A stretch of 43,510 bases of DNA, from sequence record MZ424864.1. One strand, 5' to 3'. Positions 42,830-43,510 of this stretch are shown here, in pieces (the stretch's first letter is position 1; each line of letters starts with the position of its first letter). A program made the position numbers and the translations under genes. Source of the DNA: Escherichia phage vB_EcoP_ZX6. Below the pieces are notes generated by a model, which had not been told where the DNA came from, made no database searches, and saw nothing but the letters and a program-made list of their open reading frames with translations.

Positions 42830-43450
42830 TCTAGGGATAGCGCAGGGATAGCACTATGCAGGCAATAGCTGTAGCCACTACTAGCCAATACTACCTAACA
42901 CTATCTAATACTACATAAAGCAGAACGCAGTGTCCGTACGCAGTGTAAGGACACGGAGTGATGCGGTGACTGTGTAGGTATGTCAGCCTACTGCGTAGGC
43001 ACAGGGACATACTAGTGAGTACTAGTGAGTGCATAGTGAGTAGTAGTGTATATAGTGTCCCTAAACCCCTCCTACTCCGGTTACTTCATTTCATAATAGC
43101 TTTCGAATGAAAGTAAGAGCAAAGGGATAGCATTGGGATAGCGCTGGAGTGTGGAAGTGCGCCCTAGTGGGGAGCGCGCAGCGTAGCACATAATCGGCAC
43201 AATGTAAAGCACTATGGATAGCCCTAGCGATAGCCTAGTATGTACTAGGGATAGCACTACAGCGCACTAGCTGGCCCACTGTGGCCCCACTACTGGCACA
43301 CTAGGCAGGCACTAGGCAGGCCCACTGGACAGGCACAAAATAAGCAAGGCAGAGCGCCCCTCTATGGCCCACAGAGAGCGCACAGGAGGCGCCCTAGTGA
43401 ACGCACAGGGATAGCCATAGGGTAGCACTAGCAATAGCCCTAGCGCAGCG
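42830..43450. repeat. dispersed array of GGGATAGC-type 8-bp motifs and short tandem repeats in terminal non-coding DNA
   Basis: GGGATAGC or one-mismatch variants at ~42835, 42846, 43124, 43135, 43216, 43226, 43249, 43408, 43418, 43430; tandem ACTAGTGAGT x2 (~43011-43030); CACTAGGCAGG x2 (~43300-43322); GCGCACTAGCTGGCCC at ~43263 and ~43477. Confidence 0.5.
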
Positions 43451-43510
43451 CAGAGAGCCACTGAGGCCCGCTGGTGCGCACTAGCTGGCCCTAGCATGCC
43501 CCACCCAGTG

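Follow-up and report, generated by a model that had tools for sequence, protein, structure and literature searches.

The terminal repeats of T7-type phages adjoin arrays of short repeated sequences, and how these phages recognize the concatemer junction and cut their repeats exactly is poorly understood; the arrays themselves have stayed functionless on paper since T7 was sequenced. Those flanking the T7 terminal repeat, which we take to be the elements called SRL and SRR, were reportedly described by Dunn and Studier in 1983. Positions 1-420 of T7 hold CCTAAA (unit CCTAAAG) 11 times on one strand and never on the other, with a lag of 13 (z 8.6) and three copies inside the 160-bp repeat; the left end of SP6 holds CTTAGT 12 times to none (lags 12 and 24), and phiKMV holds CCTGGC nine times to one. 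Here we report a one-stranded array of short repeats at the left genome end of Escherichia phage vB_EcoP_ZX6 (MZ424864.1), measured with scripts identical to those used for these three phages, together with the direct terminal repeat (DTR) into which it extends; "the window" denotes the whole stretch of 43,510 nucleotides that was analysed. We are highly confident that in Drulisvirus the array corresponds to the heptamer arrays found within and next to the terminal repeat of T7, and so belongs to a known kind of feature. Its position is that of an SRL-type element, between the left repeat and the first consensus sigma-70 promoter (phage-forward ~80-745 and 952-980, respectively, where phage-forward means the minus strand numbered from the physical left end, and forward p above 66 is window 43577-p). 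So is its form, the short motif recurring in 11 copies about one helical turn apart, all in one orientation and some of them within the repeat.

Every long open reading frame of the window is on the minus strand, and its non-coding tail resembles that of Klebsiella Drulisvirus phages (Autographiviridae, Slopekvirinae), with 98.7% identity to FK1979 and 95% to F19. We are highly confident that the window is the genome of a KP34/F19-like Klebsiella Drulisvirus, a relative of T7, and equally that the DNA singled out by an earlier note on this record is the left-end cis-acting region of such a phage, composed of part of the DTR and a one-directional repeat array. The first gene is at 42027-42242 (minus strand); from 42243 to the window end there is no credible gene and the lag-3 signal typical of coding DNA is absent, in agreement with that note's description of a non-coding stretch reaching to the first early gene. 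The complete account, in which this left-end region and its array also serve the maturation machinery, has in our judgement a little under an even chance of being correct.

The repeat array and the collapsed terminal repeat

Exact GGGATAGC occurs nine times in the window against 1.74 expected, a number reached in none of 100 shuffles, and six of the nine lie within 42834-43415, all on the + strand. With five further copies that carry one or two mismatches, the total at 42834-43438 comes to 11, again on the + strand throughout, where the earlier note had counted at least ten. Neighbouring copies start 11-12 bp apart (42834/42845, 43124/43135, 43215/43227 and 43408/43419/43431), consistent with the pairing at about 11 bp noted before, and the tandem repeats and duplicated 16-mer GCGCACTAGCTGGCCC named on that occasion are all present, the tandems being recovered by Tandem Repeats Finder, 10 of whose 22 rows for the whole window lie in 42369-43444 (Table 1). 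Within the 691-bp array region GGATAG is found seven times against 0.12 expected and never on the opposite strand, the strand counts of ATAGC/GCTAT are 11 to 0, and CTAG reaches 23 per kb, tenfold its density of 2.3 per kb elsewhere. GCTATC is divided eight to none by strand in the array, three of the units being inside the DTR, and self-similarity is maximal at lags 10 and 11 (z ~5).

When all copies are read in register, GGGATAGC is seen to be half of a longer degenerate unit, YTAG-K-GC-NNN-CC in phage sense, the best-kept form of which is CTAGnGCTATCC(C); GGGATAGC is its best-kept half on the other strand. We conclude with high confidence that the leader is a degenerate, strictly one-stranded repeat of 10-12 bp with the phage-sense unit CTAG-K-GCTATCC, broken by a nearly invariant core in which the leader promoter for the phage RNA polymerase lies. 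Its copies fall into four clusters, the third of which is a triplet in F19 and JKT6 and a pair in the window.

The DTR was located by alignment with annotated relatives, and a single 225-bp copy (phage-forward 1-225) is made up of 43352-43510 plus 1-66, as the earlier note had anticipated in suggesting that a terminal repeat was collapsed or lay within the flagged region. The annotated left ends aligned were those of AttikonH5 (DTR of 215 bp), fHe-Kpn01 (222 bp), Pokalde_001 (247 bp), KpV48 (192 bp), JKT6 (311 bp) and KP34 (216 bp), of which the fHe-Kpn01 ends had been mapped by restriction analysis, Sanger sequencing and PhageTerm (PMC7291057). The repeats of these six genomes end on shared columns, phage-forward 224-227, and their lengths differ because of internal insertions. 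All annotated relatives start with (C)CCTCACCCT and end the repeat with ...GCGCTC/TGCCTTGC (a slash marks the boundary here and below). Records start or end at the equivalents of window positions 66 and 43352, several of them ending at 43352, and the annotated left repeat of F19 runs from the window's last bases directly into its first. The sequence ...CCCACCCAGTG-C12-TAAATTGACG... is contiguous in FK1979, AttikonH5 and many permuted records, and for this reason we regard the poly-C at 1-12 as genuine and the window ends as joining seamlessly; FK1979 (12 C), AttikonH5 (13 C) and NKA196 have this run in the corresponding position.

Short-read assemblies of T7-like phages routinely drop one DTR copy (PMC10438801). 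We are highly confident that this genome was assembled as a circle, opened inside the DTR, and retains one copy of it. Of the flagged region, 159 bp therefore belong to the repeat and ~520 bp to the unique leader. The record is thus a permuted assembly lacking one repeat copy, and the coordinates given here now allow it to be re-oriented and completed. The link that the earlier note had drawn between the array and the terminal-repeat boundaries stands in part: arrays of this kind do adjoin the terminal repeats of the T7 group, and the boundaries themselves are marked by other, nearly invariant sequences. The palindrome CCCCCATAGGGGG near the left end is invariant across the 28 Drulisvirus leaders compared.

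Several other features of the DTR were recorded. In phage sense the tract G12-CACT-GGG-T-GGGG (window 1-12 and 43500-43510) could form a G-quadruplex, and relatives without G12 still have a G-rich tract at the poly-C site. In the F19 record the two repeat copies disagree on where the poly-C run stands and over their last ~25 nt, which looks like an assembly error in that record. A scan for terminator-like sequences matches 43346-43360 at the right boundary. The DTR also holds GCTGGTGC at 43469-43476 (+), one mismatch from E. coli Chi; its orientation fits RecBCD entry from the left end, but the relatives differ at this place (TCTGGTGC, ACTGGTGC), and we rejected it as a Chi site.

Conservation of the leader and its promoters

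Conservation was assessed over 28 distinct Drulisvirus leaders, and identity to the window over ~18-20 metagenomic Drulisvirus loci. All 28 leaders contain GCTATC in 6-11 copies, with 0-2 on the other strand, and arrange them in four positional clusters with varying copy number. Identity to the window is 0.88 for the array leader and 0.95 for its core, the early genes giving 0.88-0.91. Selection acts on the leader. In phage-forward 67-361, motif positions are conserved at 0.904 and the others at 0.768, a difference that none of 5000 permutations reached. Pairwise differences in leader length peak a second time at 10-12 nt (29%), and multiples of three are not overrepresented, from which it follows that whole units are gained and lost and that the DNA is non-coding; the small leader genes annotated in AttikonH5 show neither a lag-3 signal nor indels in multiples of 3 and were set aside. 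In the E. coli relative EC22.5-2, which is 74% identical, the unit is kept as CTAGnGYTATCYCT at 12-bp spacing, with GCTATC again 8 to 0 by strand. We also observed that AT skew, about -0.2/-0.3 over the genes, changes sign to reach +0.2/+0.4 across the leader and repeat (42700-43500), the phage-sense leader strand having T over A (skew up to +0.42 on the window + strand) and, in 42800-43300, C over G.

The KP34 RNA polymerase uses T(A/G)ATGTTACAGGAGTA, with copies at KP34 nt 22197 and 33721 and, as S2, at 475-490 (Lu et al., PMC6834552); S2 reads TGATGTTACAGGAGTA and has been shown to work in vitro (PMC6834552). In the alignment KP34 475-490 occupies exactly the columns of window 43073-43088 (minus), where the leader element fits the 16-nt consensus at 13 of 16 positions. 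It differs from S2 at 3 of the 16, and at three from TAATGTTACCGGAGTA, the consensus of its own genome, two copies of which match the KP34 consensus at 15 of 16 positions and are followed by GG; KP34 has A at promoter position 10 where the window lineage has C. Judged by this alignment and by layout, the leader element is in all likelihood the counterpart of KP34 S2 and of T7 phiOL, an assignment in which we have high confidence. As for host promoters, a consensus scan passed over the candidate at 43180-43208 because its -10 hexamer matches at three of six positions, and the sequence of the first sigma-70 promoter is also given for F19, SU503 and KP34 (PMC4411677).

Some further elements in or near the leader were tried as signals and rejected. 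CCTACTCCGG has three exact copies, all on the + (non-coding) strand, against 0.08 expected, and the copy at 43071-43080 supplies, on the right strand, half of the phiKMV nick consensus CGACN5CCTA/CTCCGG (PMC3517423), in which the slash belongs to the published form. No CGAC stands upstream at any of the three copies, however, the sole nick mapped in the genus (fHe-Kpn01, at 7873) is without such a site, and the element corresponds, in reverse complement, to the 3' half of a KP34-type promoter. Together with the two G's that open the transcript, the 3' half of the promoter reads CCGGAGTAGG, and on the opposite strand this is identical to the CCTACTCCGG part of the nick consensus, an unexplained coincidence. 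An SP6-like promoter at 43048-43064 (TTTAGGGACACTATATAC) was dismissed as a single, non-recurring copy that forms the start of the leader transcript; TTAGGGACACTATATAC at this place (minus), present once in the genome and covering ~+9 to +25 of that transcript, closely resembles the SP6 promoter, which we take to be ATTTAGGTGACACTATAG. A conserved terminator closing the array (42795-42817) was discarded when its stem proved to be lost in most relatives, and an Rfam scan returned no known RNA family, even at E=1.

Table 1. Positions of leader, terminal-repeat and promoter features in the window, and of the environmental array loci
Feature	Position	Strand	Remark
Cluster i: GGGATAGC, GGGTAGC, GCAATAGC	43408-43438	+	inside DTR; 11-12 bp apart
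Cluster ii: TGGATAGC, GCGATAGC, GGGATAGC	43215-43255	+	conservation 0.8-1.0 over 28 leaders
Cluster iii: GGGATAGC pair 11 bp apart	43124-43142	+	within invariant core
Cluster iv: GGGATAGC pair and GCAATAGC	42834-42869	+	
GGGATAGC variants	42862 GCAATAGC; 43215 TGGATAGC; 43227 GCGATAGC; 43419 AGGGTAGC; 43431 GCAATAGC	+	
11-bp tandem CACTAGGCAGG, 2-3 units	43299-43334	+	Tandem Repeats Finder
10-bp tandem TACTAGTGAG, 3.8 units	43010-43048	+	Tandem Repeats Finder
10-bp tandem TAGCCAATAC, 4.2 units	42872-42913	+	Tandem Repeats Finder
16-mer GCGCACTAGCTGGCCC	43262-43277; 43476-43491	+ (leader copy)	leader copy first, DTR copy second
Nearly invariant 175-bp leader core, phage-forward 362-535	43042-43215	-	identity 0.95
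DTR inner part, phage-forward 67-225	43352-43510	-	relatives' DTR ends on same alignment columns
DTR outer part, phage-forward 1-66	1-66	-	physical left end ~window 66, reverse complement CCTCACCCTCAACG...
Poly-C(12), G12 in phage sense	1-12	+	assembly opening point in DTR
DTR right-boundary sequence CTCTCTGTGGGCCATAGAGGGGCGCTC/TGCCTTGCTTATTTTG	43335-43378	-	nearly invariant; kept in 28 Drulisvirus leaders
Palindrome CCCCCATAGGGGG	30-42	- (phage-forward 25-37)	25 nt from left physical end; once in genome
Putative phage-RNA-polymerase leader promoter TGAAGTAACCGGAGTA, start ~43072	43073-43088	-	probable counterpart of KP34 S2, T7 phiOL
Two further TAATGTTACCGGAGTA copies	21951-21966; 9923-9938	-	positions equivalent to KP34's other two strong promoters
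Candidate host promoter TTTACA-17 nt-(TGc)TACGCT	43180-43208	-	invariant in 28 leaders; read from sequence; candidate start near 43170
First consensus sigma-70 early promoter TTGACA-17-TAGATT	42597-42625	-	inner limit of array leader
Environmental array loci (IMG/VR)	L079 2246-2400; L062 9178-9327; L057, L048, L038, L011, L016, L063; ~65 others		

Two observations lie outside the leader. A hairpin at 41975-42030 (minus), between the first two early genes (-20 kcal/mol, z -4.7), may be an RNA-processing or termination site; it contains CCCTATGGGG, an element proposed as a phage promoter (PMC4411677) before other promoter sequences were found for the KP34 polymerase (PMC6834552). Within a minus-strand gene, 28425-28479 holds six 9-bp tandem copies of CTGGTGCAG (73% matches), which probably encode a short peptide repeat.

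Possible roles of the array

We favour the reading that the DNA-maturation machinery uses the phased, head-to-tail units as binding sites or as polar signals for recognition. This machinery would comprise a small terminase of the T7 gp18 family and the large terminase, with a possible coupling to the phage RNA polymerase. A small terminase of this family is predicted at 5744-6046 (minus), where the window matches PF11123 DNA_Packaging_2 with E=3e-19; the large terminase is assigned to 3888-5744 and the phage RNA polymerase to 22319-24787. Units inside the repeat and just within the next genome of the concatemer would mark the junction between them, and might position the packaging complex there or slow it. 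We prefer this reading because the units lie inside the repeat as well as beside it, because arrays of this kind track the repeat strategy and a gp18/gp19-type terminase across subfamilies whose hosts and early regulation differ, and because unit polarity is strict. That a protein binds the units, which protein this would be and the link to packaging are inferred, and we treat a role as maturation-machinery recognition sites as tentative, somewhat likelier to prove wrong than right; the earlier note's association of such motifs with concatemer processing and packaging is to this extent plausible.

A number of observations weigh against such a role. The last 500 nt before the repeat, on the right-unique side, contain no GCTATC, CTAG, TAGTGC or TAGGGC, and T7 has heptamers in that place. 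The array extends over ~700 bp in four clusters, more than a single terminase ring needs, and three of the clusters abut promoter-like elements, which a transcriptional role would fit equally well. Taken over the whole leader, conservation at motif positions does not exceed that elsewhere (p=0.16), since nothing varies within the core. To our knowledge the role of the T7 arrays is unknown, and we know of no experiment that ties the Drulisvirus motifs to any protein; the searchable literature on the motif itself and on the T7 arrays gave nothing usable, and no binder of the units is shown in it. A 2026 review terms end formation of the T3/T7 type "less understood", and no terminase-binding site is defined for T7-type phages.

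The octamer is also found outside the genus. A scan of IMG/VR for the paired motif returned 29 Drulisvirus loci and 76 others, most of the latter being environmental phages with several one-stranded copies of GGGATAGC. Some of these carry perfect 11-bp tandems of GGGATAGCCRT, up to ~16 units long, and others scattered pairs preceded by TATCC; as in the window, the arrays are on the strand opposite the genes, and they sit within a module that encodes a helicase of the SNF2 type, a member of the GP88 family and a nucleotide kinase. No cultured relative of these phages was found at the DNA level. That unrelated phages share octamer, 11-bp spacing and polarity could point to a common DNA-binding factor, a weaker possibility than that of a family-wide cis-element considered below; the 8-mer may also recur by chance among the many families with 11-bp arrays. 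A phage-encoded binder common to the window and the environmental phages was sought, and the sole shared family, DUF3310, is that of the T7 gp1.7-type nucleotide kinase, widespread in phages; we did not retain it as a candidate.

Several other explanations of the array must be weighed against a role in maturation, and the one drawn from transcription is unlikely. The clusters would be promoter-proximal sites for a host or early phage factor, or would recruit RNA polymerase, and so tune the leader promoters as the first kilobase enters the cell. Cluster ii stands 7 nt before the invariant TTTACA-17-TACGCT, cluster iii abuts TTGCTC-18-TATTAT at 50-70 nt upstream of a phage promoter of verified type, cluster iv precedes the early sigma-70 promoter zone, and the leader of LUZ19 has five host promoters and a phage promoter; direct repeats 11 bp apart are, in addition, the typical layout of sites for winged-helix activators. 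The DTR copies are nevertheless far from any promoter, the candidate sigma-70 promoters match only weakly, no DNA-binding domain is recognisable in the early proteins, and T7 and SP6 possess the same kind of array with other hosts and other early regulation. No host locus with the paired motif emerged that might serve as an operator, the matches (at least 120) being scattered over unrelated taxa at about the level of chance, with no enterobacterial locus among them. Improbable to a greater degree is a replication element, either an origin primed from the phage promoter, similar to the secondary one that T7 has at phiOL, or numerous closely packed start sites for primase by the terminal repeat, the last lagging-strand primer being laid just inside the repeat and leaving it single-stranded for concatemer formation. 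A promoter for the phage RNA polymerase within the array, followed by 10-bp repeats of lower GC, would suit such an origin, as would the tenfold enrichment of CTAG, which gives CTA on both strands, and the placement of the long environmental GGGATAGCCRT arrays in a replication-gene module; the link to those arrays may itself be chance. A palindromic CTAG signal would have no need of a one-stranded GCTATCC, however. The earlier note's suggestion that the motifs may act as iterons fares no better: initiator iterons typically measure 17-22 bp and these units 8-12 bp, there is no initiator gene alongside, known domains are lacking in the early proteins, and GC falls only to 0.45-0.48.

Orientation-dependent pausing or termination of the phage RNA polymerase is less probable again. 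On this explanation the units would be related to the T7 class II signal ATCTGTT and would stop late transcripts that cross the junction into the early genes, which agrees with their strictly one-stranded occurrence, with a DTR boundary formed by TCTG and then a T-run, and with the likeness of the repeat-boundary sequences of SP6 (GGGCTATCTGTT) and T7 (CCCTATCTGTT) to a DTR copy in the window (GGCTATCCCTGTG). That likeness is limited to CTATC, the copies are not consistently followed by a T-run, and pausing at the several copies situated beyond the leader promoter would impede that promoter's own transcripts; ATCTGTT itself is not at the junction, where the boundary reads GCGCTC/TGCCTTGCTTATTTTG, the genome's only copy being at phage-forward 30256. 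Least probable, and in our view hardly tenable, is that the repeats are neutral by-products of replication slippage near the genome end and functionless. Copy number does shift by whole units between relatives, but the leader is conserved like genes and its core more so, the four clusters keep position and polarity in 28 genomes and in the 74%-identical E. coli relative, and in the variable part the motif positions are better conserved than the spacers. Should the arrays be mere spacers after all, the region would represent ordinary genome-end architecture.

Comparison with T7, SP6 and more distant systems

Beyond the array, the left end of the window phage has further sequence in common with other phages of the group. 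T7 26-44 (CCCCCATAGGGGGTACCTA) and phage-forward 25-43 (CCCCCATAGGGGGTGCCTA) are identical at 18 of 19 positions, a local score reached by none of 500 shuffles, and the palindrome they contain is at the same offset from the left end in both. The genomes start with TCTCAC in T7 and CCTCAC in the window phage (left-end box YCTCAC), the palindrome is followed by the first unit in matching register (position 41 in T7, position 40 in the window phage), and CTCTCTGTG is common to the right boundary of the window DTR and the end of the T7 terminal repeat. In SP6, positions 29-43 read CCCCATAGGGTGCCT, and phiKMV carries CCCCCGTAGG at the offset of the palindrome. The palindrome CCCCCATAGGGGG(T) shared by T7, SP6 and Drulisvirus is thus a candidate for a left-end cleavage or recognition signal that spans subfamilies. 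A bolder proposal, which we consider doubtful, is that the arrays of T7 (CCTAAAG), SP6 (CCTTAGTG) and Drulisvirus (CTAG-K-GCTATCC) are one homologous cis-element across Autographiviridae and, with the left-end box and CCCCCATAGGGGG, form polar signals read by the terminase, possibly with the phage RNA polymerase, that set the packaging end and the repeat cuts, comparable to lambda cosQ/cosB.

Looser parallels exist outside the group. At lambda cosB/cosQ and SPP1 pac the terminase, in starting or ending packaging, reads short sequences beside the cut site that are reiterated or polar; the analogy with these is functional only, as the sequences are unrelated and T7-type phages make terminal repeats and not cohesive ends. 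The parC site of plasmid R1 and its like are arrays of 11-bp direct repeats, in clusters flanking a promoter, that are bound cooperatively by small dimeric proteins, and they resemble the leader, again by functional analogy, in their head-to-tail short repeats at helical-turn spacing in clusters. Unlike R1 parC, the present element is at the genome end of a lytic phage, and no partition genes or ribbon-helix-helix protein were found with it. The leader nonetheless adds to the T7 arrays a well-conserved second example. Its unit is not that of T7, its clusters have clear positions and its copy number varies naturally, and it belongs to phages in wide use for Klebsiella therapy, in which deletion, inversion and binding experiments are straightforward.

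In SP6, too, a one-stranded 12-bp array (CCTTAGTG) separates the repeat from the first gene, and CCCCATAGGGTGCCT lies ~29 nt from the end; SP6 differs in the sequence of its motif and in keeping a T7-type ATCTGTT near the repeat boundary. The units of the window phage (CCTAGKG), T7 (CCTAAAG) and SP6 (CCTTAGTG) are similar to one another and too short for homology statistics. That of the window phage is longer (CTAG-K-GCTATCC) and recurs every 10-12 bp where T7 uses 13 bp, its copies are spread as four clusters over ~700 bp where T7 has one compact array, and its phage promoter is inside the array and not after it. In both phages the order is nonetheless the same, from the repeat through a one-stranded array with copies in the repeat, a phage promoter (phiOL in T7) and host promoters (A1, A2 and A3 in T7) to the first gene, and T7 shares with the window phage the YCTCAC box, the palindrome CCCCCATAGGGGGT at the same offset, the register of the first unit and the terminase families.

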